A DNA stretch of 64,000 nucleotides, taken from contig OY969695.1 in NCBI GenBank assembly GCA_963701965.1, forward strand, positions 2,848,001 to 2,912,000. The letters run 5' to 3'. Made by a program: the position numbers and the translations under genes. Of the stretch, positions 37,887 to 64,000 are shown one piece after another (the stretch's first letter is position 1; each line of letters begins with the position of its first letter). The notes below the pieces were generated by a model. That model saw nothing but the letters and a program-made list of their open reading frames with translations, was not told the DNA's origin and made no database searches. Source of the DNA: an uncultured Gemmatimonadales bacterium. GTDB lineage: Bacteria > Gemmatimonadota > Gemmatimonadetes > Gemmatimonadales > Gemmatimonadaceae.

Positions 37887-38114
37887 ACGTCGAGCGGAGG
37901 GGCGCGAGACGGCGAAGCGGTGAAGCCGGGCAGCGCTCCGGCTTCAGTGAAGGTCGCGATGATATCGCACGGGTGAGATTCCCGCTAGTGCATCCGTATG
38001 CCGGTATGGGCAGCATCCGCACGCTCGCGCCGGCCGGGCCGTGCAGGGTAGGGCGACGGCGATTTCGCCTGTCCAACTCGCCGGTGCGAGCACCGTGCTT
38101 TTTCTCCCGGAGCG

Positions 38115-38960: not shown

Positions 38961-39148
38961 CGTTCCGGGAAGGGGCGAGTCGCGCCTGTGATTGCCCATC
39001 AATGGGTCGGCGACGGAGCCGGCCGAGTCTCCACGGGGAGAAATGCATTGTCGTCCGGGAGCAGATTCGGCGTTGACGTAGCGATTGGCATCGACCACTG
39101 TGTATCATCCGTGCGCTGATGCTATTTCACGTCTGCCCTCTGCAACCC

Positions 39149-45300: not shown

Positions 45301-45688
45301 GTTCGTCATTCTCAATCAAGCCGCCGAATTCGGCTGTCTTCTAGGCTTCTGTAGAGCTACCAGTGTCGTAGGGAGCGATCTCCGCGACCAAGCGGCGGCG
45401 AGCGCCATTTTCACGGGACCCGGGAGTGCCGTTGGATACTATCAAGACGGCTCTTTCACGCGGTTGCGCGAAGTGTCGGTGACCTTCTCCATTCCCGACG
45501 GCATCGCGCGGCGACTACGTACCCGCACGCTTAGCGTGACGCTCGCTGGGCGAAACCTGGCACTGTGGACCAAGTACACGGGTCCCGACCCCGAGGTCAG
45601 CACCGCGGTCGGCGATCACTCATTTAATGATCAAGGGGCCGTACCGCCTGGGACGTACTGGATCGCTCGCGTCAACCTTGGTCTGTAG
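42341..45688 (+). CDS. SusC/RagA-family TonB-dependent receptor with N-terminal STN-like and carboxypeptidase-regulatory-like domains
   Basis: INIRGQNS...PLLYIDG, DISPDEIESIEIVKGPSAATLYGTDAANGVIVVRTKRG, NPNLKPE, YTGPDPE. Confidence 0.93.
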   Translation: MPNAGLRLTLGVLFVTFLSDATAQPANQVVQTSFLGETSVTGAGGTLDRLIDLDLRAVSRREALLRIGTAGGVTIGIRVPSDRNLTEPVSLYARSLTVRAALNAILKGTGLGAELIGVRDIIISADSGRVLTDPDAFGMIRGSVRDRRTNEQLAGVVVRIRGTSSHATSGLDGRYQIGRVIGGDLRVEARRLGYAPATIAISLHPGDTATVDFLLSPSAYQLDQVVTTITGDAPLLQLGNSIGTIRADSVAATQPVTDLSDIINARVPGVQVILNGGLTGASPQINIRGQNSAQLSNQPLLYIDGARVDNSVSNGVGSGRSNDISPDEIESIEIVKGPSAATLYGTDAANGVIVVRTKRGASGRRLWSAYAESGTITLDRDRFPESYYPWGTTVGGAPAVGQCTLQTGVATGACTIDSVTRYSPLRNLATTPIGTGQRQAYGLQLSGGGSDMRYFLSGAFDDETGYLKLPTSDRDAFAAERGADGFSQDDLHPNGLQRASARENVTASLGRDADLTLSSSFLTQNSRIPNSQVIEFGVFGPGYQDSTGGWALGLRPAYYMLSRNDESVDHFTGSATSNWRPASWLTTRATAGLDFSLDYLNQLTRAGEGLPGATQGSRNSSKTSNTLNSIDLGATASFDLAQSFTSRTSVGAQYNRSTLLVTGAGATSLLPGGVDVFSGSTQSAAEETVETVVAGAYVEQTFALNERLFVTGAVRADGSGSFGSDFQTAYYPKGSLSWLISRESFWPAIPGLSNLRLRAAYGEAGIQPSPTARLAREGYVQSITDGSQQVGAILTNGANPNLKPEFQREFEGGFDAGFLGGRINVELTYYQKHSTDALSTVPLGPSIGGPFGFETINVGSVNNLGYEALVNVVVLKSRDLALDLTANGSINHNKLVRLESGVVAGLPATGAATNVAGYPVSSLFDYPITRFSDANHNGIIDPSEITLGSSPVFMGQTYPKTQLTVGGTVGLLNNHVRLNAQLDYRGGFVILNQAAEFGCLLGFCRATSVVGSDLRDQAAASAIFTGPGSAVGYYQDGSFTRLREVSVTFSIPDGIARRLRTRTLSVTLAGRNLALWTKYTGPDPEVSTAVGDHSFNDQGAVPPGTYWIARVNLGL

Positions 45689-45825
45689 AGCAATTGCCGC
45701 GGTGCGTGCTCAACGCTCCGCGTTGCTCGTTACCAACGAATCCCGTCGCAATGGGCGAGTGACCCCCAATCATGTGGTGGCACTCTTCACACAGTGGAAC
45801 CATCTCCTCTAACGGATATCGCGGC

Positions 45826-47121
45826 ATGATCGCACACTTTTGGATTCGCGTAAGCAGGTCACGCGGACGTGCCTCGGCGGCGCTAATGGTCATAGCCATC
45901 TTGGCCGGCTGCGACATAACTCACGTGGCATCGCCAAATGTGGTTACTCCGAGTCAATTTCAAAACGACACGGGTGCGCTCACGCTGCGTGCGGGAGCAA
46001 TTGCCGCCTTTGCTCAGGCATACAGCGACCAGATCGTAATGGCCGGCCTATTGTCGGATGAACTCACCGATCTCACAGGCAGTTTTAAGGCGGATCAGAG
46101 AATAATCGCGACCAACGGGAGCTTGGGGTCGAACTATCCTTATGATGAACTGAGTGGCGCGCGAATCAACGCGCTTTTGGCAATTCATGCGTTGGAACTG
46201 TATAGTCCATCTTCACGTCCTCAGATAGCCGAACTATTTGCGTATCTTGGGAATGTTGAGGTGTTCTTCGCCGAGAACATGTGCTCTGGGGTTCCTCTCG
46301 GAGTACTCGTTGCTGGCAATCCGAGCTATGGAAAGACCTTGTCGCGCCAGCAGTTGCTACAGCGAGCACTGGCTGATCTCGACTCTGCCTCACACTTCTC
46401 GGCCGCAAACGATTCCATAGCTAATCTTGCTCGGATTGCCCGCGCTCGTGCCTTGCTCGACTCGAACCTCGATCTTGCCAGTCGAGCCGCTCAAGTTGCG
46501 GATTCGGTGGGTGAGGGATTCGCTTACAGTACATCGTACGGCAATATCCCGAATCAACAGAACACGGTGTTTGGGGCGTTGAACTTGCGGGGTGTCGCAT
46601 CACTATCCGACCGCGAAGGTATCAATGGTCTGGATTTCATTAGCGCAAACGACCCAAGAGTGCCGCGCGACAGCCTTGGACCTGGAAGGTTTGGGATACT
46701 CAGCGATTCCAGTGTAAGCGCGCCGATCAAGCTCGCGAGTTGGATCGAGGCTCGACTCATTCGGGCTGAGGCCGATCTTCACGCTGGCAATGCGTCGGCT
46801 TGGCTAGCAGATCTCAATGCCTTGCGTGGCGACTCTGCCACCACTGGAGTTCCCGGTCTAATGCCGCTGGCAGATCCCGGCTCCAGCAATGCGCGCATAG
46901 ACCTCATGTTCCGTGAGCGTGCATTCTGGCTGTTCGGGTCCGGCCACCGACAGGGTGACTTACGACGCCTCGTCAGGCAATACAAGAGGCAAACGGAATC
47001 CGTGTTTCCTACGGGGCAATATCGGAATGGACCACAGCGGTACGGTACGGACGTCGTATTTGTACCGTTCGGCGAATCGAATAATCCAAACTTCGCGGGA
47101 TGCTTCGATCGTCTTCCGTAG
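45826..47121 (+). CDS. SusD/RagB-like outer-membrane lipoprotein
   Basis: Lipobox LAGC; GLLSDE; EARLIRAEA; ERAFWLFGSGHRQGDLRRL; directly after susC. Confidence 0.88.
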   Translation: MIAHFWIRVSRSRGRASAALMVIAILAGCDITHVASPNVVTPSQFQNDTGALTLRAGAIAAFAQAYSDQIVMAGLLSDELTDLTGSFKADQRIIATNGSLGSNYPYDELSGARINALLAIHALELYSPSSRPQIAELFAYLGNVEVFFAENMCSGVPLGVLVAGNPSYGKTLSRQQLLQRALADLDSASHFSAANDSIANLARIARARALLDSNLDLASRAAQVADSVGEGFAYSTSYGNIPNQQNTVFGALNLRGVASLSDREGINGLDFISANDPRVPRDSLGPGRFGILSDSSVSAPIKLASWIEARLIRAEADLHAGNASAWLADLNALRGDSATTGVPGLMPLADPGSSNARIDLMFRERAFWLFGSGHRQGDLRRLVRQYKRQTESVFPTGQYRNGPQRYGTDVVFVPFGESNNPNFAGCFDRLP

Positions 47122-47133
47122 AACCCCCATCAA

Positions 47134-49752
47134 ATGCGCTGCAAAGTGTTTGGGTCCTATCTGATATTGGCGGGCTGCTCAATGCAAGCATTGGGCGCGC
47201 AGTCGTCGCTTGGTACCAGCCATCCAACAACCATAGAGGATCTTCTCGTACAAGAGCAGGTCAGCCAAATCGCTCCTTCTCCGGACGGGCGCTGGATTGC
47301 CGTAGTTGTGGACCGAGCGAGGACAGCGAGCGAGTTCTACAGGTCATATAGCAATGACGTGCATGAACGGGGTGACGTGTGGCTGTTCGCTGTTAACGAC
47401 ACGGCCGGCCGCAATCTGACACATGGAGCCGCTCGAGGTGCTGGCTATTGGAGTCCCGTGTGGTCAGCCAGCGGTGATCGAATAGCAATGCTGTCCACCG
47501 AAGGGCGAGACAATGTTCGACTGTTGGTCTGGAGACTGTCCGACAATAGTCTCTCGCGTCTAAGTGATCGCGGTGTGGACCTTAATGCAGATTTCGGAGA
47601 GGGCGGCGGCATACCTCGCCGTTTCCAGTGGTTGGGTGACACAGCAATAGCTTTTGTCGCACTCCCCCCGGGTGAGGCGCCGATCACCTATGGCTACCTC
47701 ACGCAAATGCAGCGCGCCGCTACAACAATGTGGCCAATGGCGGAGCGAGGCGAATTGCCGACGCGCCGTGTATTCAATGTCGGCCCAGGCGCACCACCTC
47801 CTCCAGTGCCTTCGGCCCAATTGTTCGTGGTAGGTGTCTCCAATTCACGACTACGCTCTACTGGAACGTTCCCAGTGGTTGGCCTGGAACAACATCAGAT
47901 TGCCATGTCGCCCACGGGCCGCGCTGTAGCGGTCATTACACAGACTGCGTCCTATACACCAGACCGCTACCCCGTCACAGACAGTCGTGGCTTGGGCACA
48001 TGGCGACTTGGTGTTGCCCGATTGGATTCGTCCGAAGCAATACACTGGAGTTCAATCAATGTCCGGAAGCGCTCCTTCGATACACGGCAAATACGGCCAC
48101 GATGGTCAAGTGATGAGCGGTCCGTTGCGGCTATTGGCTACTCAAACGAAGCCGACAGCGCATCCGGTGTGGCGTATCTCATCTCTGCTTCGACTGGTAA
48201 AGCCGCGCGGCTCACGCCGGATAGTGAGGACGTCTCCGATCTAAGGTGGTCACCCGCTGGCTTCCTCGCTTACGCTGGAGTGCGAGCTCGCGGTTCGTTC
48301 GGGATGAGGATGCCGTCAGGCGCCGATTCATTGGTTGTCCCGACGCGTCGAGACTGGCTGCTAGTTCGCTCCGACAATGCGCGACCGACAAACATTACGT
48401 GGACGTTCGCGAACGTGTCACGCGACCTGCTGGTGTCTCGTGTCGGTGCGCAAGTGTACTTAGCTTCTGCTGGCGCGCTCTGGGCTATTGATCTCAACAC
48501 CGCCCACGCTCGTCGACTGACAGATACGTCAGTGTTCATGGCACAATCCATCCTGTGGCCTGACCCGACGACCGAGCGTGCGGGTTCAATACGCGAAGTC
48601 GTTGCGAGTACTCATTCGCGACTCCGGGTCGACGATCCAAGGCTGGTGTCGACTTTCACACGTGCGTCGGCGCCCGATGGCGTATGGTGTGTTGACGTGT
48701 CAGTCGGCCTGAACTCTGGCGCGGATCGTCCCGTGCTCATGCCGACGTCGGATGCAATCTTTCGCGATTTCATTCCCGCGAACCGTACTGCCGTCGTGAC
48801 CGCCGACCGTTGGGCCGGACAGCAAACTGTTTGGATTTCCGACATTTACCGAGCGCGCGTTGACACCGTGTTGTCCCTCAATCGCGAAGCGAACGCCCTA
48901 ATCGGGGCGCGCCGGATGTCGATCACCTATCTAGGCGCGGATGGCGATAGCTTGGGCGGCACGATTACGCTGCCCGTAAATTATGTCGCCGGCAGACGTT
49001 ACCCCCTCGTCGTAGACGTCTATGGCGGTACGTCTGCTGGTTCTGCCGATACGGTGGCGGAGTCGCCGAATCTCCTGGCAGCTCACGGATATGCGGTGCT
49101 CACTCCAAGTATGCCCTTGTCACATGCCGGCGAAATGTCCGACCCGTATATCGACATGCCTAAAGGCGTCATCGGCGCCGTCGACAAGGCAATCGCTATA
49201 GGGGTAGCTGACCCGGCGCGACTAGCACTCTTTGGTCACAGCTACGGCGGCTACAGCGTAATGTCGATACTGGCCTATACGCATCGCTTCCAAACGGCCA
49301 TTTCCTATGCGGGATTTGCCGATCTACTAAGTCTCTACGGCACACTCTCAGCCCCGTACCGTTATACATCTCAGGCTGCAGACGCGACGTTATTTCCGTG
49401 GTATTTGACTGAGGGAGGGGGAGCTCGCATGGGAGCTCCACCATGGTCCGACATGTGGCGCTATTGGCGCAATAGTCCCATCAGCTATCTGGACCGAATT
49501 CGCACGCCACTGCTCCTCATACATGGCGATGTCGATCCTAACGTACCGGTTGGACAAGCTGAGGAAGTTTTTAGCGGTTTGTACCGGCTCGGTGGAAGGG
49601 TGCGTTTCATTCAGTATAGCGGCGAAGGTCACGGTATAAATTCGCCTGCGAATATGCGCGACTTTTGGCACGAGGTCTTTGGCTGGCTCGACTCATTCCT
49701 GCTACCGAAAGCCACGTTGCAAGGCAAGGATTCGCACTTGGGCACGTCGTGA
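47134..49752 (+). CDS. Secreted S9 (prolyl-oligopeptidase family) peptidase; candidate lasso-peptide isopeptidase
   Basis: Signal peptide; SPDGRW; GHSYGG, IHGDVD, GEGH catalytic triad; adjacent to the lasso precursors. Confidence 0.85.
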   Translation: MRCKVFGSYLILAGCSMQALGAQSSLGTSHPTTIEDLLVQEQVSQIAPSPDGRWIAVVVDRARTASEFYRSYSNDVHERGDVWLFAVNDTAGRNLTHGAARGAGYWSPVWSASGDRIAMLSTEGRDNVRLLVWRLSDNSLSRLSDRGVDLNADFGEGGGIPRRFQWLGDTAIAFVALPPGEAPITYGYLTQMQRAATTMWPMAERGELPTRRVFNVGPGAPPPPVPSAQLFVVGVSNSRLRSTGTFPVVGLEQHQIAMSPTGRAVAVITQTASYTPDRYPVTDSRGLGTWRLGVARLDSSEAIHWSSINVRKRSFDTRQIRPRWSSDERSVAAIGYSNEADSASGVAYLISASTGKAARLTPDSEDVSDLRWSPAGFLAYAGVRARGSFGMRMPSGADSLVVPTRRDWLLVRSDNARPTNITWTFANVSRDLLVSRVGAQVYLASAGALWAIDLNTAHARRLTDTSVFMAQSILWPDPTTERAGSIREVVASTHSRLRVDDPRLVSTFTRASAPDGVWCVDVSVGLNSGADRPVLMPTSDAIFRDFIPANRTAVVTADRWAGQQTVWISDIYRARVDTVLSLNREANALIGARRMSITYLGADGDSLGGTITLPVNYVAGRRYPLVVDVYGGTSAGSADTVAESPNLLAAHGYAVLTPSMPLSHAGEMSDPYIDMPKGVIGAVDKAIAIGVADPARLALFGHSYGGYSVMSILAYTHRFQTAISYAGFADLLSLYGTLSAPYRYTSQAADATLFPWYLTEGGGARMGAPPWSDMWRYWRNSPISYLDRIRTPLLLIHGDVDPNVPVGQAEEVFSGLYRLGGRVRFIQYSGEGHGINSPANMRDFWHEVFGWLDSFLLPKATLQGKDSHLGTS

Positions 49753-49880: not shown

Positions 49881-50063
49881 TTACGATCCCACTGTCGTGT
49901 CAGGCGCTTCCACGTCGTCTTCGAACGTCATGCCCGGCGGATTATCGACATAAACCCGAGCTGTAAGGCTACCTACCTCATGGCTCATCGAGAAAGGCCC
50001 ACCGAGCGTTCGCTTGCATGCAGATCCGTGGTCGGTAATGTGAGGTGCCACGTAGGCTCGCAA
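49881..50063 (-). CDS. Lasso peptide precursor A2 (60 aa, TTG start)
   Basis: GAGGG RBS; MRAYVAPHITDHGSACKRTL|GGPFSMSHEVGSLTARVYVDNPPGMTFEDDVEAPDTTVGS; YxxP, G, Thr(-2), Gly1, Glu9. Confidence 0.85.
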   Translation of the reverse strand: MRAYVAPHITDHGSACKRTLGGPFSMSHEVGSLTARVYVDNPPGMTFEDDVEAPDTTVGS

Positions 50064-50245: not shown

Positions 50246-50428
50246 TTACGATCCCACGGTCGTATCAGCCGCCTGAACGCCGTTCTCGAGCGTCATGCCC
50301 GGCGGGCTGTCAACATCGGCATGTCCCGTCAGGCTACCGGTTTCATGCGTCTGGCTAGCCAGGGATCCGAAAGTCTTGGCGACCACGCTGCCATGGTCGG
50401 TAAACCGGGGAGAATTGTACGCCTTCAT
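50246..50428 (-). CDS. Lasso peptide precursor A1 (60 aa)
   Basis: GGAGG RBS; MKAYNSPRFTDHGSVVAKTF|GSLASQTHETGSLTGHADVDSPPGMTLENGVQAADTTVGS; YxxP, G, Thr(-2), Gly1, Glu9. Confidence 0.9.
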   Translation of the reverse strand: MKAYNSPRFTDHGSVVAKTFGSLASQTHETGSLTGHADVDSPPGMTLENGVQAADTTVGS

Positions 50429-50469: not shown

Positions 50470-52320
50470 CTAGGCGGCTTGAGGGGTGGCCGCACGCGGC
50501 GGCCAGAGGCCAGATCTCACTTGAAGCCAGGTTTCCAAAGACAGCGCTGCGTAAAGGCGAATGACCGACGTTCCTCGACCGCGGCGAACGAGCGACATAG
50601 CGCCCCGCAGCTTGTCCCTTTGAATGCATCCGAGCTGAGCAAGAACAGGGTCTTTCAACATCGCCTTCAACTTCGACCGCTCCGCCGTAAGCGCCCAACG
50701 GGTACGTGCTCCGAGCGTTCCCTTGCCGACGCGATTTCGCACGCGATCCGGCAGTTCGCTGCCAAGAGCCTGTCGTAGAACCAGCTTTGTGACTCCCGGC
50801 TGCGCTATGAATTCCGGATTTAGACCGAGACAAAATTCGACCAACGGCCGATACAGGAACGGGTATCTAAGATCCACGTAGTGTTCGAAGGGTTCTCTCT
50901 CGATGAACGAAGGGAGTGCTTCGATTTGCCAGGCGAGCTCGCCATTGCCATAGCCGTCCGCACATTCCTCGTACCGACGCAGTCGCGACCGCCGGTCTGC
51001 GATCGCATATTGCTTCTCAAAACGGGGCTCCAGCCATGCAGGGAGCCCGCGCCGCGGCGGAATCAGCTTTCGGCGTAGCACCTGCGGAAGAAGAGGCTGT
51101 ATGGCGCATGCATACGCCAGACGCCAAAACGACGTGTGTGTGGTCGTTGCACGGCGCGCCATTGCGTCAATGGCGCGAAGAATCCGGCCGCCTGCAATGA
51201 GGTCGGTGATGAACCCAAGGTTCCCCGTCAGGTAGTGATCTGACCCGTATCCGCTCAGGAGCACTCTCCCCCCAGATTCTCGGACGATCCTACACATCTC
51301 TTGATCCCGCGCGTAGTACGGATACATCAGGCGTGGCTGATCAGTAATCGGCAGCCTCGTGGCATCTTCCCGCCACGGCCAGTAGTCGGCGATTCGTGCA
51401 TTGGGTATCTCGTACATACGCAGTACTTCGCGCACAAAATCGCTTTCATCGCCGCTACCGAGTGAATCAACGATCGTAACGGTACCCGCGAGGCCTGACG
51501 ATGCTCTACCCGCGCGATGAAGTCGCTCGGCCGCCGCGACGATGGATGACGAATCCAATCCTCCAGACAACTGCGCCCAGGTGCGCCCCTGACCTTCTAT
51601 GCGCGCCCCCACCGCCTCATCGAGGAGTAGCCGCAGCTGTTCTGCCGCCATCTCCGCGGACAGGCAATCGGTGCCACTCCATACGAGATCTCGTGCCCGC
51701 CAAAAATATTCGATACGGATGCCACGGGCCGACGCGACTAACATTGCGCCCGCCGGCACGGCACTCACCCCCCGATAAATGGTCCGCTCGGAAGTGACAC
51801 ACCCGTGGACTAGGAAATCGGCAATGTATTCGTAATCCACCTCGTCATCCGCCGCGATCAGTGATGCATGTGTCGATAGCCATATGCCGTTAGTCGTCGT
51901 GCGGTAGTAGAGAGGGGCCACCCCGAAGCAATCCCGCGCAGCGACGACTTCTTGTCGCCCCGGACGCCATGTCACGATCGCAAAATCCCCAGTTATAGCG
52001 CGCATGGCAGCGGCGCCGTTAAGCAGCGACTGGGCAGCGCACATCATGTCGCGTTCCCCCTTCTCGTGGCCGCTGTCAATGTCGACGAGGCTCGGCGCAT
52101 CGAGCCGTGCCATACCAACACTCACAGCGTCGTCGCTACCGACCGTCGACACTCTCGGCGTTGCCTCGTTGTGGCTGTCAATGTAAGCGGCAAAGCCGCC
52201 ACCGGTCATCCATGTGCCCTTGCCGGCAGCAATCCTCGAGTGACGCAATGCCACAATGTGGCGCTCATCGTGCGATAGGGTTCGGCCATCATAGTTGATG
52301 GCGCACACAAAGGCGCTCAT
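50470..52320 (-). CDS. Lasso cyclase C (asparagine synthetase-like)
   Basis: ARDCFGVAPLYY, LSGGLDSS, LLSGYGSD, RYPFLYRPLVEF; no Cys at mature position 1; ATGA-coupled to B2. Confidence 0.9.
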   Translation of the reverse strand: MSAFVCAINYDGRTLSHDERHIVALRHSRIAAGKGTWMTGGGFAAYIDSHNEATPRVSTVGSDDAVSVGMARLDAPSLVDIDSGHEKGERDMMCAAQSLLNGAAAMRAITGDFAIVTWRPGRQEVVAARDCFGVAPLYYRTTTNGIWLSTHASLIAADDEVDYEYIADFLVHGCVTSERTIYRGVSAVPAGAMLVASARGIRIEYFWRARDLVWSGTDCLSAEMAAEQLRLLLDEAVGARIEGQGRTWAQLSGGLDSSSIVAAAERLHRAGRASSGLAGTVTIVDSLGSGDESDFVREVLRMYEIPNARIADYWPWREDATRLPITDQPRLMYPYYARDQEMCRIVRESGGRVLLSGYGSDHYLTGNLGFITDLIAGGRILRAIDAMARRATTTHTSFWRLAYACAIQPLLPQVLRRKLIPPRRGLPAWLEPRFEKQYAIADRRSRLRRYEECADGYGNGELAWQIEALPSFIEREPFEHYVDLRYPFLYRPLVEFCLGLNPEFIAQPGVTKLVLRQALGSELPDRVRNRVGKGTLGARTRWALTAERSKLKAMLKDPVLAQLGCIQRDKLRGAMSLVRRGRGTSVIRLYAALSLETWLQVRSGLWPPRAATPQAA

Positions 52321-52757
52321 AGCGTCGGCAACGGCAACTGAGCCAACCCGCGCGTAATTTCGCCAGTCTCATTAAGCGGCGCCCCATTGTACTCAACCCA
52401 CGCGTGCGCCGTGAAGCCGTACGGCTGCACCCCCAGGCGAAAGACAGAGTCCACTCCGCTCCGCCGAAGCAGGTGATGCAGTGTCAGCGACTGCTCCAGA
52501 CAGTACGCGCGACCGGGAAAGAATGCACCTGCGACCGCCACTTTCCGTACTATTTCGGTGAGCACCGTCGTCTCGACGCACTGTCGTGGGCGCACCGTGG
52601 CGCATAGTGCATTACTAAGTCTCATCGTCCGACCGAGGCCGCCAACGCGCAATGCAAGCTTGATCCAGATAAGCGTCACTACGCAGGTCATGGTACCGGG
52701 TACCGCTAAACGTCTGCCAGTCATGGCAGCTTGAGATCGGTCATCGTGTGCGCGCAT
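52317..52757 (-). CDS. Lasso leader peptidase B2 (transglutaminase-like)
   Basis: CLEQSL...LGVQPYGFTAHAWVE; TGATG overlap with B1. Confidence 0.92.
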   Translation of the reverse strand: MRAHDDRSQAAMTGRRLAVPGTMTCVVTLIWIKLALRVGGLGRTMRLSNALCATVRPRQCVETTVLTEIVRKVAVAGAFFPGRAYCLEQSLTLHHLLRRSGVDSVFRLGVQPYGFTAHAWVEYNGAPLNETGEITRGLAQLPLPTL

Positions 52758-53056
52758 CAGACGGCTACGAGCTGTGACTGATAGAGATCTAGCAAAAGCG
52801 TCACCACGTCCCGTTCGAGACGTTCGCGAGGCACGTCGTAATTCGGTGCTAACTGGTCGACGATAGCTGCCACCGTGTGATACTGCTCGAGCAACGACCA
52901 CACATCACCACCGATTTCGTTGAGGGAGTAGTACCGACTCCGCTTCACGTCAAGAAGCACTGTGGCTTGGCCATGCCGAGTGAAAATGATATGCCTATGT
53001 GCTGAGATAGTGGCGGATAGCCGAATGGTTGCGTCGTTCGCAGATCGCTGGGGCAT
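52757..53056 (-). CDS. Lasso RRE B1 (PqqD family); start uncertain
   Basis: VLLDVKRSRYYSLNEIGGDVWSLL...YDVPRERLERDV. Confidence 0.92.
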   Translation of the reverse strand: MPQRSANDATIRLSATISAHRHIIFTRHGQATVLLDVKRSRYYSLNEIGGDVWSLLEQYHTVAAIVDQLAPNYDVPRERLERDVVTLLLDLYQSQLVAV

Positions 53057-53309: not shown

Positions 53310-54209
53310 ATGTCTTTGGCGGACTATGCCGTCGGGAAGATTCTGAGCGGCAGATATCGCATCCTCGAACATAGGGCAGGTGGTGGGCAGGCAATCGTGC
53401 TCCGTGTGGAGCACACCTTCCTGCACCGCCAGCTGGCGATGAAAATTGCCAGACGGCGGATCAGCGTTGGCCCACCGCGAATCCTCGAGGAGGCTGAGAC
53501 TCTAGCCGCGATAAATCATCCTGGCATCCCCGCAATCGTCAATGCAGGGGTATTGGCAGACGATCGTCCCTACCTGGTCTCGGAATGGATTGATGGCCGG
53601 TCGCTCGCTGAATTAGCCGCCGTGCACGCCTGTAGCCCGCGTGCCGCTGTTCAAACCATGGCTGCCTTGAGCGCCATTGTTGGCGATTTGCATGCGCTGG
53701 GCGTTCTACATCGTGACCTGAAACCAGCGAACATCCTGATACCTATGAACGGGGAGCACCCAGAGTATGCAACCCCCAAGCTGATTGACTTCGGCGTTTG
53801 TGACACTCTAAATGTCGACGTCGCCGGCGGAGTGCGCACAACTGGCAGCGGACGCACCAGTGGCACGGCGCTCTACAGCGCGCCGGAACAGATCGCTGGA
53901 CGGCGTCAATCAATGACGACCGACGTATTCGGTCTGGGTGCAATCCTGTTCGAGTTGCTGTGCGGCCATCCTCCGCTCGCTCCCACCGGGGAGGTGTCAC
54001 TGTTCGAGCTGGATTGCGGAGGTGAAAAGATGGCAATTCCCGTCGCAGTCAATCGACTTATCGCCAATGTGCCGGTACCGGAGATTGCGGGCGTGCCAAC
54101 CAGTGTTCGCGAAATTGTTCAACAGTGCCTGCGCAACGAACCAGAGGGACGCCCACAATCCGCCGCTGAAGTGGCGGTGACGCTGCAAGGCGCGTTAGCG
54201 ACGTGGTAG
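53310..54209 (+). CDS. Stand-alone Hanks-type Ser/Thr kinase
   Basis: AGGAG RBS; GGGQAIV, AMK, HRDLKPANIL, DFG, YSAPE; no TM or sensor domain. Confidence 0.88.
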   Translation: MSLADYAVGKILSGRYRILEHRAGGGQAIVLRVEHTFLHRQLAMKIARRRISVGPPRILEEAETLAAINHPGIPAIVNAGVLADDRPYLVSEWIDGRSLAELAAVHACSPRAAVQTMAALSAIVGDLHALGVLHRDLKPANILIPMNGEHPEYATPKLIDFGVCDTLNVDVAGGVRTTGSGRTSGTALYSAPEQIAGRRQSMTTDVFGLGAILFELLCGHPPLAPTGEVSLFELDCGGEKMAIPVAVNRLIANVPVPEIAGVPTSVREIVQQCLRNEPEGRPQSAAEVAVTLQGALATW

Positions 54210-54361: not shown

Positions 54362-56254
54362 TCAGCGGTATCCGGCAGCCTGCATCGAGAAGAGTTCACT
54401 GTAGAGCCCTCCCCGACCGAGCAAATCAGTGTGGGTGCCATGATCTGCAATGCAGCCACCCTGAAGCACGATGATCCGGTCCGCCATTCGCACAGTGGAG
54501 AATCGATGCGAAATGAGAACGGCGGTGCGCGCCGTCGCGAGTTCCGAGAAGCGACTGAACACCTCATATTCGGCGCGTGCATCAAGCGCTGAAGTCGGTT
54601 CATCTAATATGAGAACTTGGGCTTGACGCATGTACGCGCGTGCGATCGCGACCTTCTGCCACTCGCCTCCGGACAAGTCTATGCCCCCATCAAAACGACG
54701 TCCGAGAACTTGGCGATAACCGGCGGGTAACTGCGTTAGCAGAGACGATGCCAGGGAACGTTCGGCCGCCCTCGCAATTGCAGGATGCACCGGGTGCTTC
54801 AAATCACCCTTGAGATCGTCGAGCTCATCGAAATGATTGCGAGACGCCTCGATTTCTCCGACGCCAATGTTTTCGTCAAACCGAAAATCGTAACGAACAA
54901 AGTCTTGAAAAATGACGCCAATCGCGCGACGCAGCGATGCGATGTCGTATTCGCGGAGATCAACGCCATCAAGGAAAATCCGACCTTCGGTCGGGTCATA
55001 GAGTCGCGTCAGCAGTTTTGTGAGAGTCGTCTTGCCTGCGCCGTTCTCGCCTACGAGAGCGATGCGTTCACCGACACCCAGCGCCAGGTCAATGTGCCGT
55101 ACGGCCCATCGCTCACTGTTGTGGTAGCGGAACCCGACATCCTGAAAAACGAAGCCTTCGTGAATGTGGGCCGGTACCAGGACGGCGTTGTGCCGGGCAG
55201 CGATAGTCGGACGAATCTCGAAGTAAAGAAAGAGATCGCGGAGATACAGTGTTTGTTCGTAGATGTCACGCCCCGTCTGGAGAATGCTCGCGATGTACGA
55301 ACGACTGCCGGAGAAAGACGAAGCCAGGAAGGTTAAAGCGCCAATGGTTATGCGGCCGCGCATCGCATCTACGAGGATAAACACATAGGCGACGTAGTAT
55401 CCAAGAGTGCCCAAGATTGGCAGGGCACCACTGATGAAGGCGCGCTGAACCGCCAACGCCTTGTTTTCCTCGTAAAATTGCTGCGAAAGGCGCCGAAAAC
55501 GATCAGTCAGCCAGGGTGCGAGACCAAACATCTGCACTTCTTTGGCAGAGCGATCGCTGGACCCCACATAACGAAGATACTCGAGCATGCGCCGTCCTTC
55601 GGTGCGGCCGAAGAACAAGGAGTAGGCTCGGCGACTGTAGTGCGTCTCGCCGAGAAAACTTGGAAGGATGGCTAGCACCAGCAGTGCCAGCAGCCACGGG
55701 TTGAACGCAACGATCGCCCCACTCAAGCTGAGCAGCGTCAGCGCATACTGCGCGATGCTAAGGAGCTGGCCGAGTAGGCCAAGCCGCGCGGTCGAGTTTT
55801 GCCGCGCACGCTCGAGCAGGTCGTAAAACTCCGGATTCTCAAACTGCGCGAGATCGAGCGTCGCCGCGTGCTCCATGATGCGCACACTGACGTGGTTCGT
55901 GAACAGATCCCCAAGCAAAACCTCGACCAACGTCGACGCTCGCGAGATCGCCTGATCCGCGACGACGATCGAGATCTCGATCGCCACCAGCGTCCACAAG
56001 TGATGCCAATCCGGCCCCCGGAGCCGCGCCTTCACCACCGCGTCGATGATGAGCTTGGCCACCCACATCGTGGCGAGCGGCGTCGCGGCGCGCACGATGC
56101 GCAGTACCATCATCGCCACCGTGAGCGGCCAGCTCGTCTCCCAGATGAGCGCGATGAACTTGGGAACGTAGCGGAGCGCCGAGATACGCTCGCGAAGCTT
56201 GGGCGGCTCCTTGGTCGTGCCGGCGCCGGCGCCGTTGCCGTTGTGCGTCGCCAT
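54362..56254 (-). CDS. ABC exporter (fused TMD-NBD)
   Basis: TM region; GENGAGKTT, LSGGEWQK, ILDEPT, SHRFSTVRMAD. Confidence 0.92.
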   Translation of the reverse strand: MATHNGNGAGAGTTKEPPKLRERISALRYVPKFIALIWETSWPLTVAMMVLRIVRAATPLATMWVAKLIIDAVVKARLRGPDWHHLWTLVAIEISIVVADQAISRASTLVEVLLGDLFTNHVSVRIMEHAATLDLAQFENPEFYDLLERARQNSTARLGLLGQLLSIAQYALTLLSLSGAIVAFNPWLLALLVLAILPSFLGETHYSRRAYSLFFGRTEGRRMLEYLRYVGSSDRSAKEVQMFGLAPWLTDRFRRLSQQFYEENKALAVQRAFISGALPILGTLGYYVAYVFILVDAMRGRITIGALTFLASSFSGSRSYIASILQTGRDIYEQTLYLRDLFLYFEIRPTIAARHNAVLVPAHIHEGFVFQDVGFRYHNSERWAVRHIDLALGVGERIALVGENGAGKTTLTKLLTRLYDPTEGRIFLDGVDLREYDIASLRRAIGVIFQDFVRYDFRFDENIGVGEIEASRNHFDELDDLKGDLKHPVHPAIARAAERSLASSLLTQLPAGYRQVLGRRFDGGIDLSGGEWQKVAIARAYMRQAQVLILDEPTSALDARAEYEVFSRFSELATARTAVLISHRFSTVRMADRIIVLQGGCIADHGTHTDLLGRGGLYSELFSMQAAGYR

Positions 56255-58054: not shown

Positions 58055-59086
58055 CTAACGCGCCGCCGCAGACGGCGCCGTCCCGTACGGCTCGTCGAAC
58101 ACGAGATCCCGCGCCACCAACACCACGAATGACGTCCCGCCCCGCACCGTGATCACCGGCGTGAGTTGGGCGTCGGCGCGCAACATCTCGAGCGTCCGCT
58201 CGGAGATCTGCTCGCCGAACGATCCCGCCACGACCTGGCCCGCGCTCGGCGTCGTATAGGGCGCGCCCGCGCCGGCGTTGGGTTGACTCAACTGCCCCGC
58301 CGCGCCGACCAGCGACAATAGCGCGGCGTCGATATACGCGTGGGCGATATGCGTGTCCACCGCGCCGCGCAGCCCGGCCGTCCCGCTCTCGTCGCCGGCT
58401 TCGAATCCCGGCAGCGCCATCGAACGCCCATCAGGAAAAAGGAGACGCGTCCATACCACGAGCAACGCGTCCTCCCCGCGGCCCACCTGCGTGTCGTAGC
58501 GCCCAATGAGACGGGAGCCGCGCGGCACCAATACCCAACGCTGGCGCGGCGTGTCGTACACGTCGCGCGTGACTTGGGCGACAACCTGACCGGGTATCGT
58601 CGAACGGATCTCGGTCACGAGCGCAACGGACACCACGGTGCCGGTCTGCACGGTGTACGGTGAATCCAACGCGTGCACGCTCGACGACGTGTCCAACCGC
58701 TCGGCCGCGGACAAGAACTGCGCGTGGGGCGCGGTCGATGGCGGCGCGTCGGACGCCGGCGCTCTCTCGCGCGCCGTGCGTACCAACGGTGCGCTCACTA
58801 ATGCGCGGGTGTACGACGTTGGTACGGGTTGGGGAAGTGGGGCGCTCATGATACTGGATACCGGGCGCACCGCAACGCGATGCGAGGTATCGGGAGTGGG
58901 ACTGGGAAACGATGGACGCTGCGCGGCCACGGGCCGCGGCGCCGTGGGATGGTCGGGCGCCACGGGACGCACCGCCGACCACAGAACGACACACGCGGTA
59001 ACGCCGGCAACGATCGCCGCGGCGAGCAGCGCGGTGTGATTGAGACGCGCGGGCTTGGGCGGGGTCGGTCGATAGGCCGAGCTCAC
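58055..59086 (-). CDS. trbI: Conjugal transfer protein TrbI/VirB10
   Basis: PGQVVAQVTRDVYD, VPRGSRLIGRY, VWTRLLFPDG, G-x-AGL-x-G-x-VD-x-H. Confidence 0.92.
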   Translation of the reverse strand: MSSAYRPTPPKPARLNHTALLAAAIVAGVTACVVLWSAVRPVAPDHPTAPRPVAAQRPSFPSPTPDTSHRVAVRPVSSIMSAPLPQPVPTSYTRALVSAPLVRTARERAPASDAPPSTAPHAQFLSAAERLDTSSSVHALDSPYTVQTGTVVSVALVTEIRSTIPGQVVAQVTRDVYDTPRQRWVLVPRGSRLIGRYDTQVGRGEDALLVVWTRLLFPDGRSMALPGFEAGDESGTAGLRGAVDTHIAHAYIDAALLSLVGAAGQLSQPNAGAGAPYTTPSAGQVVAGSFGEQISERTLEMLRADAQLTPVITVRGGTSFVVLVARDLVFDEPYGTAPSAAAR

Positions 59087-59092
59087 GATGCA

Positions 59093-59920
59093 TTACTCGC
59101 GAGCGAACAAGCGCGTGTTGATGATCTCGACCTGACGCGGGCGACGCCCATCCTCGGTCCCGCGCAAAATGGCGCGCGCGAATACGCGATCGGTGATGTA
59201 CGTATCGTTGGCGACGACGTAGTTGAGCACCGCCGTGCTCCCATCGGCGAGCTCCAAAAACAACACGGGCAGCGCACCCTTCCGAGCGTCGGCGCCCAGA
59301 CGCACGAAGGCGTGCACACCGTCGTCGTACACGGCGGCCGGCGCCCAGGGAATCTTCCCATCGGCGCTCCACCGATACGTGAATGCCAATGACTCGGGAC
59401 GCACCGCGTCGCCGCTGGCCGCACCCTCGGCCCGCGCGACGAGAGCGGCGGGATAATAGAACCGCACGTGCCGCGTGTACCGCGCGGCGCGATGCCCGCA
59501 GGCGGGCGCGTCCAACGCCAGATCGTATACGCGCCGGTCGGTCGAGACCACGAGATTGGTGCCGAGGTCGCAGGCGGTGGGCTTCACGATGAGGAGCGGC
59601 GTGCGCCCGCCGGCGCCGCTCCCGGCCTGATCGATGAGCCACCGCTCGGTGTCGCCCAACGCGGTCGCCAACACGCGCTCGCCGGCCTCGAGCTCGATGA
59701 CGCACGCGCGCAAAGGCGCGCACGTCACGGTCGGCTGGCTGTGCCCGAACGGGAACACGACGGCGTCACCGACCTCGACGGTCCGGGGCGACCACCCGCG
59801 CAGGACCTCCCGCTCGGCGATAGCAACAGGATCGGCCGTGGTATCGACCTGGGCCCCGAGGGGCGCCAACCCCACCACCAGGAACCCTACAATCATTAGA
59901 TACGTGAGATACGTCCTCAT
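59093..59920 (-). CDS. trbG: Conjugal transfer protein TrbG/VirB9
   Basis: Signal peptide; CAPLRACVIELEAGE, GDTERW, TNLVVSTDRRVY, VYDDG. Confidence 0.9.
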   Translation of the reverse strand: MRTYLTYLMIVGFLVVGLAPLGAQVDTTADPVAIAEREVLRGWSPRTVEVGDAVVFPFGHSQPTVTCAPLRACVIELEAGERVLATALGDTERWLIDQAGSGAGGRTPLLIVKPTACDLGTNLVVSTDRRVYDLALDAPACGHRAARYTRHVRFYYPAALVARAEGAASGDAVRPESLAFTYRWSADGKIPWAPAAVYDDGVHAFVRLGADARKGALPVLFLELADGSTAVLNYVVANDTYITDRVFARAILRGTEDGRRPRQVEIINTRLFARE

Positions 59921-60579
59921 GATACCGGCCCTCCCACCCGCGTCCAGGTGATCGACGTGACATAGAGCCCTAAGGGGTTCCGCTCGATGGTCTCCTCGGT
60001 CTCAGGCGGAGACACCCGGACGCTCAAATAGGCGTCCCACGCGTGGGTCACCGCGGGCGCCCCATTGGCGGGATACTCGGTCTCGGTCCACTGCACACGC
60101 CATCCGGCGCCGCCGGTCCGGGGCACCGGCAACACCGCGGTGACGTCCGCCGTCCGCGTCATCGTGCGACCAAGAACGCGCGGGTTGTTCCGGGGATCAC
60201 CGTAGTACGCGTTCAAGAACGCGGCGCCACCTTGGTCGAGATAGGCGTACGCGCGCGCCAACACATCGGCCTCCGCGGCCTCCGATGGCACCACGGTCCG
60301 CACATTGCGCACGAACTCGGCGAGTTGCGCGATCACGAGGCGCGTGTCCGCGTGGCGCAATGGCTCGGCGGGCCCGAACGCCCGCGCCTGCCCGAGCTTG
60401 TCGACTTCCACGAGATAGGGCGTCACGCGCGCGGTGAGCGACAGCCGCACATAGCCGGCGGTCTCGATGATCTGCCCGATGACGAGCGCGAACGCCATGA
60501 GCTGCCAGTTGCGCTTCCCGCGGGCGAGATTGGCGTACACGCCCTCGAACTCGCGCCGGGCCGCCACCCACGTGCTCAT
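59917..60579 (-). CDS. trbF: Conjugal transfer protein TrbF/VirB8
   Basis: NWQLMAF, PYLVEVDKLG, WRVQWTE, NPLGLYV. Confidence 0.9.
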   Translation of the reverse strand: MSTWVAARREFEGVYANLARGKRNWQLMAFALVIGQIIETAGYVRLSLTARVTPYLVEVDKLGQARAFGPAEPLRHADTRLVIAQLAEFVRNVRTVVPSEAAEADVLARAYAYLDQGGAAFLNAYYGDPRNNPRVLGRTMTRTADVTAVLPVPRTGGAGWRVQWTETEYPANGAPAVTHAWDAYLSVRVSPPETEETIERNPLGLYVTSITWTRVGGPVS

Positions 60580-60586
60580 GGTTGCC

Positions 60587-61420
60587 TCACGAGCCGCGCA
60601 GGGCACCGGCGAGTCCGAACGACTGCCGCGCAGCGATCCACCGCGCGCCATGCTCGGGCACCCGCGTCGCCAACAGCGCGAATAACACGGCGCCGCCCAA
60701 CACCTGCCCCAGCGGCGAACCCGGACCAAAGAGCTGATCGGCCTGGATCAACGCCACCCACCCGCGCGACAACTCGCTCCCTAAACTCACCATGAGATAG
60801 AGGAGAAAGATCTTGACGCCCACATGCACGGCGTAGGTCAGAAACCCGTCGGCGATCCCCGCCGTCCCCCGAAACGCCGCGAAGCCGAGGAACACCACGC
60901 CCCCGCCCAATACCACGTAGCTCTCGACGAGGACCATCACGAGCTGCGCAGCCACCGCGATGTACGCTCCCAACACGATGACGGCGCTCAACGCGGCGAA
61001 GAGCGCCATTGCGGGGTTCGCCAGTACGCCGACGACGTCGAGGGCCGTCAATAGCTTGGCGGCGAGCGCCATCCCGATGTCGATGATGTCGGACGGATTC
61101 ACGGTGCCGGCCACGCCAATGGCGCGCTCGCCAGCGGCCGCGAACCCGTCGATGAACGGTGGGATCCAGAACGCGAACGATGTGATCAACGACAAGAGCA
61201 CCGCGAGCAGCGCAAACTTGAGCACGAACCGCGCGGCAATGTCGTCCAACGCGTCCCGGCGCAACCCGTACACCAGGCCCGATACCACGACTTCGATGCC
61301 GGCCAAGAGCGCGAACGCCCGCTGGGCCACGGGCACGAGCCGCGCCAGCCAGTCGTGCGAGGCCAACCGGTAGGCGTCGGCGATCCCATCAAGGATCGGC
61401 CCGGTGGTCTGGATCTGCAT
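60587..61420 (-). CDS. trbL: Conjugal transfer protein TrbL/VirB6 (compact)
   Basis: Multi-TM; NPSDIIDIG, LVESYVVLGGGVVFLGF; position between trbJ and trbF. Confidence 0.85.
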   Translation of the reverse strand: MQIQTTGPILDGIADAYRLASHDWLARLVPVAQRAFALLAGIEVVVSGLVYGLRRDALDDIAARFVLKFALLAVLLSLITSFAFWIPPFIDGFAAAGERAIGVAGTVNPSDIIDIGMALAAKLLTALDVVGVLANPAMALFAALSAVIVLGAYIAVAAQLVMVLVESYVVLGGGVVFLGFAAFRGTAGIADGFLTYAVHVGVKIFLLYLMVSLGSELSRGWVALIQADQLFGPGSPLGQVLGGAVLFALLATRVPEHGARWIAARQSFGLAGALRGS

Positions 61421-62106
61421 CAGGGCCGATACGAAAAGGACGGACGCCGGGGCGGGGTCGCCGCCATCCCGGCCAGCAACGCGCGCGCGTTTTCCTGGGC
61501 CTGGGCTTGGGCGTTGACCTGGCTCGCATAGTACACGGCCTGGGCGTTGGTCTGGGCCGCAATAGCCTGCCGCAACAACAGCAGCTCCTCCGCGCTGTAC
61601 ACGTGCACGGTGTTGGCGAGCTCCAGGGACTCCTCGTGCCCGTTGGATGCGGCGACCTGCGCCTTGAACTGGTCGATCTGCGTGGCGCCGGGCGCGAACG
61701 TGGACGCGCCGACGCGCGTGGCGTCGAGCGCACCGGCCAACGTGGCCATGGTCGCGGCGTTCCGCGCGCGCTCGTCCGCGGGAAAGTCCCGCGTCGCCGC
61801 GGCGGGGAACCGGGCCGCGAATCGCTGATCGAGATCGCTCGACGAATACGCGATCGCGGCGCCCTGACTCTGCGCCACGCTGGCGGCCTGCACGACGCCA
61901 CCGATCTGCCGCCACACCGGCGAGCCGAGCTTCTTCAGGGCCTGCACTTGGTTGGCGATCTGGGACTCGGCCAACCGGATCTGCTCGAGCGCCTTGAGAT
62001 AGTGGGCGACGCTCTCGGCGTAGTTTGTGGGATCGAACACCGTGAACTGGGCCCGCGCACTGGCGGGCAGCATGATGGCCAGCACCGCCACTCTCACTGT
62101 TCGCAT
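61420..62106 (-). CDS. trbJ: Conjugal transfer protein TrbJ/VirB5-like
   Basis: GAGGAGG RBS; signal peptide; VFDPTN; helical Gln/Ala-rich. Confidence 0.8.
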   Translation of the reverse strand: MRTVRVAVLAIMLPASARAQFTVFDPTNYAESVAHYLKALEQIRLAESQIANQVQALKKLGSPVWRQIGGVVQAASVAQSQGAAIAYSSSDLDQRFAARFPAAATRDFPADERARNAATMATLAGALDATRVGASTFAPGATQIDQFKAQVAASNGHEESLELANTVHVYSAEELLLLRQAIAAQTNAQAVYYASQVNAQAQAQENARALLAGMAATPPRRPSFSYRP

Positions 62107-64000
62107 GATGCCTCCTCGAGCCAAACGTGAACCCACGCGTCGCCATGGGCCGCCATCAACGCGGCGGCCCGGCGCCGCACGTCGTCGCCCGACGCCAAAA
62201 ACGCCCGGGCCACCGGCCCGAGCGCGAGATCGAACAGCCGGCTGCCGTGGGGCGACGTGAGATAGTAGTCGCGCTTGGGCACGGCCCGGGCGATGGTCTC
62301 GATTTCTCTAGCCCCAAGTCCGAGCGCGGCGTACACGGCGGCGGTGTCGGGAGACGCGGCGTCGGCGTTCGGCAGATAGATGCGCGTCGGACAGGACTCC
62401 CGGATCAAGTGGGCATGGGGCATGTCGCGGAGCTGCGCGGCGCTATGCGCCACCAGCACGACGGCGGCGTTCTGCTTGCGCAGCGTCAAGAGCCACTGCT
62501 TGATCCGGGACGCGAACGTGGTGCGCAGCAGCGGACCCCACAACTCCTCGATCACGATGAGCGCGGGCCGGCCGTCGAGCTGCCGCTCCACGTGTCGGAA
62601 CAGCGCCAACACCGCGGGCACGAGCACGCGGTCGTCCATCTCCAGCAACGACCGCAGCTCATACACGGTATAGCGCGTCGCATCGGCCGGCGACGGGTCT
62701 GCCGTCTCCGTGCCATCGACCACGCCGCCGTACACGCCACCGATGTATGGGGCCAACGCGGCAACGAGGGCCCGGTCCTGCACCTGCCGAGCGAACTCCG
62801 CCAGGGTGCGATGCTCCGGCGCGGTCTCACCCAACAACGCCAACGCGCGCTCGATGCGCGCCCGCATCGCCGCCGTCACCGTTACGCCCTGGAACTCGGC
62901 GATGCTCTCGACCCACTCGGCGCACCACGCGTCAATGACGCGCAGCGGTTGTAGCGCCGTGCCGCCGCCGGGTACCAGGTCGATGTGCCGGCCGCCCAAC
63001 GCTTGACACAGGAGCCATGCCGAATACCCGACGTCGAACACGAACACGCGGGCCCCCGGGTAGCGCAGGAACTGCGCGCCGAGGAGCCCCACCAGAGTGG
63101 ATTTGCCAGCGCCGGTCTGGCCGACGATCAGCGTGTGCCCCACGTCCGACACGTGGAGGTTCACCCGAAACGGCGTCGATCCGTCGGTGGCCGCCCACAG
63201 AAGCGGCGGACTCCCCGCCGGAAAGTACGGACTGGGATTCGCGGCCAAGCCGGGCCACACGCCGGTCACGGGCACCAGATCGGCGATCGCCGCGCCGCTC
63301 ACGATGGGACGGCGCACGTTGGGCGATCCGTGCCCCGGCAGCGTGCCCAGAAAGGCCTCGACCGCGTTCACGGTCTCGATCCGCGCGCCGAAACCGGCAT
63401 CGCCCAATGCGCGCACGATGGCGCGGGCCACGGTATCGGCGCCGCGGTCGTCGTCCGCGGTGACGACCGCCACCTGGTTGTACACGCAAAACCGCGCGCG
63501 CCCGCTGGCGTTCTCGGCCGCGGCGCCGGCCGCATCCTGCGCCATGCGGGCGGCGTCATTGTCGAGCCACTGGGTGTCGGTCAATGCGCTGGCCGAACGG
63601 TGCGTCATCTCCCGCAACCACTCGCCGGCGCCCTTTCGCTTCTGGAACCATCGCAGCTGATGCCGCCGGATGAGCCGCGCCGCTGTCGCCTGCGACAAGG
63701 GCAATATCCGGTGGGACCAGCGATACTCGGCCGGCAGCGCGGCGATGGACTCCAGCATGCCCGGCACAGACGTATCCGGCCAACCGGTGACGGCGACACA
63801 ACGGATCGACTTGCCGCCGATGCGCGGCTCGAACCCGCCCGTCAGCTCACCCGTGGCCAGCGCCATATTGAGATAGGCGCCGGACGGCGGCACGCGCACG
63901 GGATGCCAGAGGCCCGTGAGGCAGCCGTGCAGATGCGTGCACAGTGCGTCGGCGTCCAGCGGCTCCAACACCAGACGGGCGCTGAGCCGGTCCGTGATAC
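62094..64000 (-). CDS. trbE: Conjugal transfer ATPase TrbE/VirB4 (5' end outside window)
   Basis: PFRVNLHVSDVGHTLIVGQTGAGKST, VIEELW, WLLTLRKQN, ESCPTRIYLPN. Confidence 0.93.
   Translation of the reverse strand, partial: ITDRLSARLVLEPLDADALCTHLHGCLTGLWHPVRVPPSGAYLNMALATGELTGGFEPRIGGKSIRCVAVTGWPDTSVPGMLESIAALPAEYRWSHRILPLSQATAARLIRRHQLRWFQKRKGAGEWLREMTHRSASALTDTQWLDNDAARMAQDAAGAAAENASGRARFCVYNQVAVVTADDDRGADTVARAIVRALGDAGFGARIETVNAVEAFLGTLPGHGSPNVRRPIVSGAAIADLVPVTGVWPGLAANPSPYFPAGSPPLLWAATDGSTPFRVNLHVSDVGHTLIVGQTGAGKSTLVGLLGAQFLRYPGARVFVFDVGYSAWLLCQALGGRHIDLVPGGGTALQPLRVIDAWCAEWVESIAEFQGVTVTAAMRARIERALALLGETAPEHRTLAEFARQVQDRALVAALAPYIGGVYGGVVDGTETADPSPADATRYTVYELRSLLEMDDRVLVPAVLALFRHVERQLDGRPALIVIEELWGPLLRTTFASRIKQWLLTLRKQNAAVVLVAHSAAQLRDMPHAHLIRESCPTRIYLPNADAASPDTAAVYAALGLGAREIETIARAVPKRDYYLTSPHGSRLFDLALGPVARAFLASGDDVRRRAAALMAAHGDAWVHVWLEEASCEQ

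Follow-up and report, generated by a model that had tools for sequence, protein, structure and literature searches.

A stand-alone Hanks-type kinase linked to lasso peptide clusters in Gemmatimonadota, a candidate threonine kinase of the lasso precursors

The stretch of DNA analysed here (the window, 64,000 nucleotides from an uncultured Gemmatimonadales bacterium) carries a lasso peptide biosynthetic cluster inside a low-GC island located at approximately 40.2-56.0 kb, the GC content of the genome being 0.67. The genes (Table 1) are ordered as susC, susD and an S9 peptidase on the forward strand, A2, A1, C, B2 and B1 on the reverse strand, the kinase gene on the forward strand and an ABC exporter on the reverse strand. 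The preferred start of B1 is at 53056, the longest ORF beginning at 53179; its best lasso-specific match, NF033536, scored 60.6 bits, below the cut-off of 80, and the best NCBIfam match of C, NF033535, scored 170 bits, below the cut-off of 525. Both A1 and A2 show the lasso precursor pattern of a Y-x-x-P leader, Thr at position -2, Gly1 and Glu9 (the rule being Asp/Glu at positions 7-9), and both end in DTTVGS, as the first-pass annotation had stated. The codons of core Thr37 lie at 50258-50260 in A1 and at 49893-49895 in A2; for A2 the start is uncertain, since the codon is TTG and the spacing to its ribosome site is poor.

Table 1. Genes of the lasso cluster and its surroundings in the window.
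Feature	Position	Strand	Remarks
SusC-like TonB-dependent receptor	42341-45688	+	TIGR04056 364.8 bits vs cut-off 368
SusD-like partner	45772-47121	+	PF07980 weak
S9 peptidase, candidate lasso isopeptidase	47134..49752	+	PF00326 above cut-off; NF033523 85 bits, below cut-off 400
Precursor A2, 40-aa core	49881..50063 (about)	-	predicted Gly1-Glu9 ring, tail DTTVGS
Precursor A1, 20-aa leader, 40-aa core	50246..50428	-	predicted Gly1-Glu9 ring, tail DTTVGS; good ribosome site
C, lasso cyclase (Asn-synthetase-like), 616 aa	50470..52320	-	PF00733 above cut-off
B2, leader peptidase	52317..52724	-	PF13471 and NF033537, both above cut-off
B1, leader-binding RRE (PqqD family)	52757..53056	-	PF05402 69.2 bits, above cut-off
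Stand-alone Hanks-type Ser/Thr kinase	53310..54209	+	299 aa; lasso-linked subfamily; PF00069
ABC exporter, convergent with kinase	54362..56254	-	72-80% identical copies in several kinase clusters

The left edge of the island (window 36798-41656) holds a TPR protein, a SIR2_2-domain protein and a 206-aa ORF, and the window contains no tRNA gene. Conjugative type IV secretion genes, which we take to be VirB10/Trb-like, adjoin the island at 58055-63971, and the resemblance of the flanks in L163-L165 points to an integrative element with variable cargo. The genome also holds another lasso B1/B2/C cluster (L059; G000:C1:4339663-4342435), which has a 19-aa core, an AraC-like regulator and SusC/FecR/sigma genes but no kinase and serves as a natural control.

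The kinase gene is preceded by an AGGAG element five bases 5' of its ATG, and its product matches PF00069 with 116.5 bits, above the cut-off. The catalytic set is complete (K45, E61 and HRDLKPAN at H134-N141, including D136, K138 and N141), further motifs being DFG at 160, APE at A191-E193, D205 of alphaF and R281 of subdomain XI, and the catalytic residues are invariant or nearly so across 13 aligned subfamily rows. In the Gly-rich loop (GxGxxG) the central Gly-Gly alone is kept subfamily-wide, the first Gly being Ala in the window kinase. A Pfam profile search of the 299-aa protein gave no second domain, and it has no membrane helix, the maximum 19-residue hydropathy being 1.49, compared with 2.3-2.9 in membrane-anchored relatives. 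The AlphaFold model (pLDDT 88.8, pTM 0.87) was matched by Foldseek to the PknB kinase domain with an E-value of 1.5e-22, a TM-score of 0.79, an rmsd of 2.1 A and 29% identity, the closest solved structures and best PDB profile matches being those of the PknB/PknA/Stk1/StkP group. By its catalytic residues and modelled fold, the protein is an intact soluble Hanks-type kinase, for which phosphotransfer is predicted. The gene has a GC content of 0.594 and a GC3 of 0.62, compared with GC3 values of 0.57-0.66 for the lasso genes and 0.81-0.90 for the flanking genes, and is separated from the divergent B1 by 253 bp when measured from the ATG at 53056, or by 130 bp from the longest-ORF ATG at 53179. 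The first-pass description of a stand-alone catalytic domain of 299 aa, divergent from B1 across about 250 bp and of island-like composition, was borne out by the intact ORF, the absence of extra domain and membrane helix, the spacing from the preferred B1 start and the lasso-gene-like GC3.

None of the best 120 matches to the kinase exceeds 40% identity, and the three top matches among 41 related genomes are short stand-alone kinases from the same genus. Profiles built from these three relatives delimit a 15-member subfamily, made up of the 13 aligned proteins and of P0303 and P0368, with scores of 338-400 bits, the remainder of 489 collected proteins reaching at most 266 bits; most members helped to build the scoring profile, P0303 and P0368 being the ones that did not. 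A quick tree computed from 109 domains places the 13 stand-alone proteins in one group (SH-aLRT 86), separate from the 33 other kinases of the window genome, the window protein forming a long branch, and the other members of the enclosing family (support 100) mostly bear a C-terminal membrane module. The sister kinase family, with a Pro-rich linker, a membrane helix and a conserved helical C-terminal module (L014:1-1018; P0126-P0128, P0130, P0132, P0133, P0136 and P0137), is the apparent source of the lasso-linked kinases. A G163 kinase (262 bits) considered as a member belongs with these membrane-anchored sister proteins, and lasso genes are missing from the 8 kb around it; it was excluded by length and tree position, a decision made after its context was seen.

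The subfamily is marked by a conserved G-R-x-Q after APEQ, by an insertion of approximately 16 residues before alphaG relative to PknB (around residues 223-243, where model confidence is low), and by an activation loop in which Ser/Thr is conserved at no position; one member (L012:766-1728) has HCD in place of HRD. PknB, PknA, Stk1 and StkP share the fold but possess a membrane helix and PASTA repeats that are absent from the window kinase, which matches NF033483 (PknB/Stk1 PASTA) over the kinase part only, with 148.5 bits against a cut-off of 450, and which further differs in lacking the conserved activation-loop Thr, in the pre-alphaG insertion and in its fixed lasso linkage. The subfamily is rare, with members in four of six genomes of the genus; the source records assign the relatives to Gemmatimonadaceae. 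No further member came from three draws, overlapping and of 401 genomes each (family, order and phylum; only five candidates scored per genome), 80 viral loci contained none (best score on viral contigs, 175 bits), the ESM Atlas returned generic kinases only, and a representative-protein search, dominated by multi-kinase proteins, added two members (P0303 and P0368). Among the best 120 of 3080 longer proteins, no fusion of a kinase to PqqD, B2 or cyclase was found, which is weak evidence; the best single-domain score among them was 229 bits, compared with 338-400 for members.

All seven members with readable DNA lie within approximately 0.5 kb of lasso B1 or C, six of them head-to-head with B1 and one downstream of a precursor (L013), at pairwise kinase identities of 28-39%. 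This count covers 7 of the 15 subfamily members and excludes the JGI proteins P0002, P0003, P0122, P0124, P0125, P0131, P0303 and P0368. The three relatives chosen by kinase similarity alone from the 41 genomes all adjoin lasso genes, and DNA-pattern scans, run on both genomes and metagenomes, produced 11 loci, among them three new member kinases (L015, L023 and L025), the other matches being non-kinases (L018, L019), multi-domain kinases of 876-897 aa without lasso genes nearby (L022, L024) or repeats of kinases already counted (L016, L017, L020, L021). Lasso B2 was detected above cut-off in 26 of the 41 related genomes, and no subfamily kinase was present in 34 other B2 loci (38 above-cut-off matches, minus three kinase clusters and an unpublished genome), two of which have a generic kinase several kb away. 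Eight of these control loci have a weak HPrK-like gene within 4 kb of B2, a feature that all four Hanks clusters of those genomes lack. The window genome encodes 34 Hanks-type kinase domains, which gives an estimated chance of about 6% of finding one this near given a lasso cluster; as the adjacency recurs in all six other readable members, the linkage is more than chance. Co-occurrence of this kinase clade with lasso clusters, put forward as a check in the first-pass annotation, was thus observed for the B1/B2/C genes at seven of seven readable loci, and the subfamily is also tied to Ser/Thr-rich precursor tails. The kinase is a real, conserved component of one lasso-cluster lineage.

It could be argued that the kinase is island cargo, inherited beside the lasso genes and functionally unconnected with them, given that the clusters lie in related low-GC cargo regions near conjugative genes (window 58055-63971; L165) and that a single origin is compatible with the cyclase tree. 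However, the adjacency has survived divergence to approximately 30% identity as well as rearrangement (the L013 kinase is downstream of a precursor, and SusC/SusD are on the opposite side in L011 and L023), the kinase stays where DUF6065 and GT9-like genes come and go, and the number of readable members away from lasso genes is zero, making this explanation very improbable.

When seven precursors, drawn from four kinase clusters, were aligned, the sole invariant positions were Pro, Gly and Thr(-2) of the leader, Gly1 of the core, and an Asp and a Thr in the tail (D-x-T). The tail forms are DTTVGS (twice) in the window, DSTPGT, DSTFGT and DSTASG in L011, PDNT at the extreme end in L013 and DSTNNS in L023, and two more G005 precursors, found with a profile, share the tail of the in-cluster G005 precursor. 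In total, all nine precursors of the four kinase clusters that share a contig with their precursors have cores of 31-40 aa and D-x-T within the last 10 residues, although the finding is partly circular for two of the nine, the profile that found them itself containing D-x-T. The two additional G005 precursors lie upstream of susC, approximately 10 kb from B/C (L069:1447-2141; G005:C261:27.9-28.6 kb). In L011:14200-19900 there may be a fourth precursor, which is broken but has a DST tail, together with an interrupted ABC gene and an insertion-sequence pair that is presumably IS21-like.

Among 21 control precursors from 16 loci, none has D-x-T in the last 10 residues and two carry it further inside. 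The corresponding Fisher values (2e-4 to 8e-4) overstate the association because the clusters are kin, and the motif was picked after the first sequences had been seen; shuffling gave a probability of 0.02-0.05 for any shared residue-pair motif arising over four clusters by chance. A1 and A2 differ in their last six codons by two synonymous changes and no amino-acid change, compared with five of nine ring residues changed. In the kinase-less clusters that share this cyclase lineage, some of which include S9 and SusC genes, the cores measure 15-25 aa and lack D-x-T, the exception being a doubtful 53-aa candidate in L054, which was kept in the control set; a weak control candidate in L032 was left out as a likely false match. 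The controls with a SusC/S9 setting (L027, L054, L034 and L176) lack D-x-T and L023 retains both kinase and D-x-T in the absence of an S9 gene, so neither S9 nor SusC explains the motif. Motif patterns and one profile, by which divergent leaders may be missed, detected no precursor at 23 of these 34 B2 control loci.

By analogy with paeninodin, the first-pass annotation had proposed the C-terminal Ser as the phosphorylated residue, a claim that did not hold across the lineage: the nine precursors end in Ser (two), Thr (five), Cys (one) or Asn (one), and with two of nine ending in Ser and nine of nine carrying D-x-T, the likely site is the Thr of D-x-T rather than the terminal Ser. Hanks kinases normally bind the residues on either side of the acceptor. 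This speaks against modification of the C-terminal Ser/Thr or of several tail hydroxyls with D-x-T acting as a docking signal only, as do the two precursors ending in Cys or Asn and the three G005 precursors that end on the Thr of D-x-T. Terminal or multi-site modification would nevertheless accord with the Ser or Thr ending seven of nine precursors, compared with 6 of 21 controls, with the 8-12 Ser/Thr residues per core, and with the lasso kinases PadeK, ThcoK, SyanK and PsmK (paeninodin, pseudomycoidin), which act on the C-terminal Ser and can polyphosphorylate (partial text of PMC9266682); on balance it is considered unlikely.

The kinase contig of G632 (L015) carries the N-terminal half of C, and contig L174 the complementary C-terminal half, without overlap. 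After the C half, L174 encodes a single precursor (9549-9686) with a typical leader and a 21-aa core that starts with Glu and lacks D-x-T. The two contigs are probably halves of one cluster and, if the join is right, D-x-T is found in four of five clusters and nine of ten precursors. In the cyclase tree the six kinase clusters require five changes, yet a single origin is compatible with the tree (p-AU 0.37), and the association of kinase and motif is therefore not phylogenetically independent. The ABC exporter is present in five of the seven kinase clusters (window, L011, L013, L023 and L025) at 72-80% identity, as against 30-38% between the cyclases of kinase clusters; the G003 copy is interrupted, that of G002 lies on an unlinked contig, and none was found at >64% identity in G632, which may be incomplete. 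The first 300 nt of the window ABC gene have a host-like GC3 of 0.92-0.94, which then falls to about 0.6.

The exporter could be the reader of the D-x-T tail. Stand-alone Hanks kinases are usually regulators, and the kinase may, as the first-pass annotation also considered, be a dedicated regulator of the cluster that phosphorylates B1, B2, C, the exporter or a transcription factor, D-x-T being read by another component such as the exporter. Its ancestry among membrane-anchored signalling-type kinases, its usual organisation as a divergent transcription unit of its own with an intergenic region in common with B1, the co-occurring conserved exporter and the probable D-x-T-less kinase cluster of G632 are all in keeping with regulation. 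The absence, among the best 120 longer matches, of kinase fusions to an RRE or lasso enzyme weighs against a tailoring role. The kinase lacks, however, sensor, membrane and partner-binding domains, and the unconserved activation-loop Ser/Thr and the HCD member fit a constitutive enzyme. Moreover, near kinase-less clusters use the same B/C/S9/SusC machinery and have short precursors, and the exporter is itself interrupted in G003 and missing at >64% identity from the possibly incomplete G632. A regulatory role is thus regarded as somewhat unlikely, and phosphorylation of the precursors by the kinase, whatever the site, as probable from the sequence comparisons.

Lasso kinases have been placed in the HPrK superfamily (partial text of PMC12639078), and the window resembles their systems in that the kinase gene lies within a lasso B1/B2/C cluster, a linkage seen here at all seven readable loci. 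BsfK, which modifies an internal Ser or Thr with the help of B1, provides a precedent for an internal site, for tolerance of Thr and for B1 assistance (partial text of PMC10368454). The HPrK-family enzymes have an HPrK/P-loop fold with a His-Lys-Asp-Asp set, whereas the window kinase has a Hanks/PKc fold and no match to PF07475, elsewhere in G000 only a housekeeping HPrK being found. Their substrates carry a conserved C-terminal Ser or ring Ser3, in contrast to the D-x-T tail of the window family, and their nucleotidyltransferase partner is absent from the window. The window kinase thus appears to work like an HPrK-family lasso kinase without being a member of that family.

In cyanobactin biosynthesis, the DolG/AphG kinase domain (PF00069) phosphorylates the peptide and the phosphate is stable, so Hanks-type RiPP tailoring has a precedent in the form of a fused domain (partial text of PMC12639078). 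That domain resides within the macrocyclase, prefers Tyr and acts late on the cyclic peptide in cyanobacteria, according to the same portion of the source, whereas the window kinase is free-standing in a lasso cluster, has a predicted Thr site and has no cyanobactin protease in its cluster. LanKC/LanL synthetases also contain a Ser/Thr protein-kinase-like domain acting on the precursor peptide (partial text of PMC10604976), with fused lyase and cyclase domains and a transient phosphate; the window protein consists of the 299-aa kinase only. In an analogous route, the phosphothreonine would be an intermediate from which a lyase forms dehydrobutyrine, as in class III/IV lanthipeptide synthetases. 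This would be in line with the weak similarity of the kinase to LanKC and LanL profiles, at 36 and 75 bits far below the cut-offs of 575 and 650, and with the title of a paper naming a hybrid system and its dehydroalanine-containing lasso peptide, cited in the available part of PMC13352647; that system may involve a kinase. Profile searches of the window cluster detected no lyase-like gene, however, and L011-L013 and L018-L025 contain no match to the island's sole unassigned ORF (41036-41656); dehydration is accordingly judged extremely improbable.

The S9 peptidase and TonB-dependent receptor are shared with isopeptidase-type clusters (astexin, sphingopyxin and rubrinodin), and the rubrinodin cluster also has an ABC transporter (partial text of PMC9266682). 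The window differs from these in its SusC/SusD-type pair, split B1/B2, cores of 31-40 residues in the family and Hanks kinase.

In the favoured reading, the D-x-T Thr near the precursor C-terminus (core Thr37 in A1 and A2) is the phosphorylated residue, an assignment for which the chances are judged to be about even. The soluble and probably constitutive kinase would transfer phosphate from ATP onto the Thr37 hydroxyl of the linear precursor, probably assisted by B1 as is the case for BsfK, and peptide docking is predicted to involve the pre-alphaG insertion and the conserved basic residues R198 and the Arg pair 248-249. Phosphorylation would precede maturation, an order taken by analogy from PadeK (PMC9266682, in part) and BsfK (PMC10368454, in part), after which B2 would cut off the leader and C would close the Gly1-Glu9 ring; the product would be a lasso peptide whose long tail is acidic and phosphorylated. 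More loosely, the ABC transporter may export the product, SusC/SusD may re-import it and the S9 peptidase may open it, as proposed for isopeptidase-type clusters, and the phospho-tail may serve in cargo binding or receptor recognition. Taken as a whole, the proposal that a membrane signalling kinase, having lost its anchor, was recruited as a free-standing lasso tailoring enzyme that reads a portable Asp-x-Thr tag and generates phosphothreonine lasso peptides with a non-HPrK fold, in a SusC/SusD catch-and-release setting in Gemmatimonadota, is put forward as one that could equally well prove right or wrong.

Further observations were made on lasso loci of related genomes. Their variable cargo repeatedly includes DUF6065 genes and weak GT9-like ones (L013:13562-14374, L025:4207-5025, L023:15932-17098, L034, L035 and L054), which are possible further tailoring enzymes. 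Weak HPrK-like genes are present in many Gemmatimonadota lasso loci (L026, L028, L029, L036, L042-L044 and L047), several precursors of such loci not being Ser-ended, and PF14907 nucleotidyltransferases are found in L028, L045, L047 and L053. At L077:1396-2956, a putative YcaO-like gene comes immediately after a lasso-like precursor.

A stand-alone Hanks kinase in lasso clusters was not found in the open-access literature, although supplements or subscription journals could already mention such a kinase; in the available part of a 2026 review, paeninodin is the only example given of lasso phosphorylation (PMC13352647). If the proposed function is correct, lasso peptide phosphorylation would have evolved convergently in a second enzyme superfamily, unrelated to the first, and the conversion of a signalling kinase to biosynthetic use would be traceable. 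Asp-x-Thr would then be a short recognition tag that could be grafted onto other peptides to have them phosphorylated, and 'regulatory' Ser/Thr kinases found beside other RiPP clusters may likewise be tailoring enzymes. It would also offer a handle on the cargo or signal of isopeptidase/TonB-type lasso peptides, in a phylum rich in unexplored lasso clusters.
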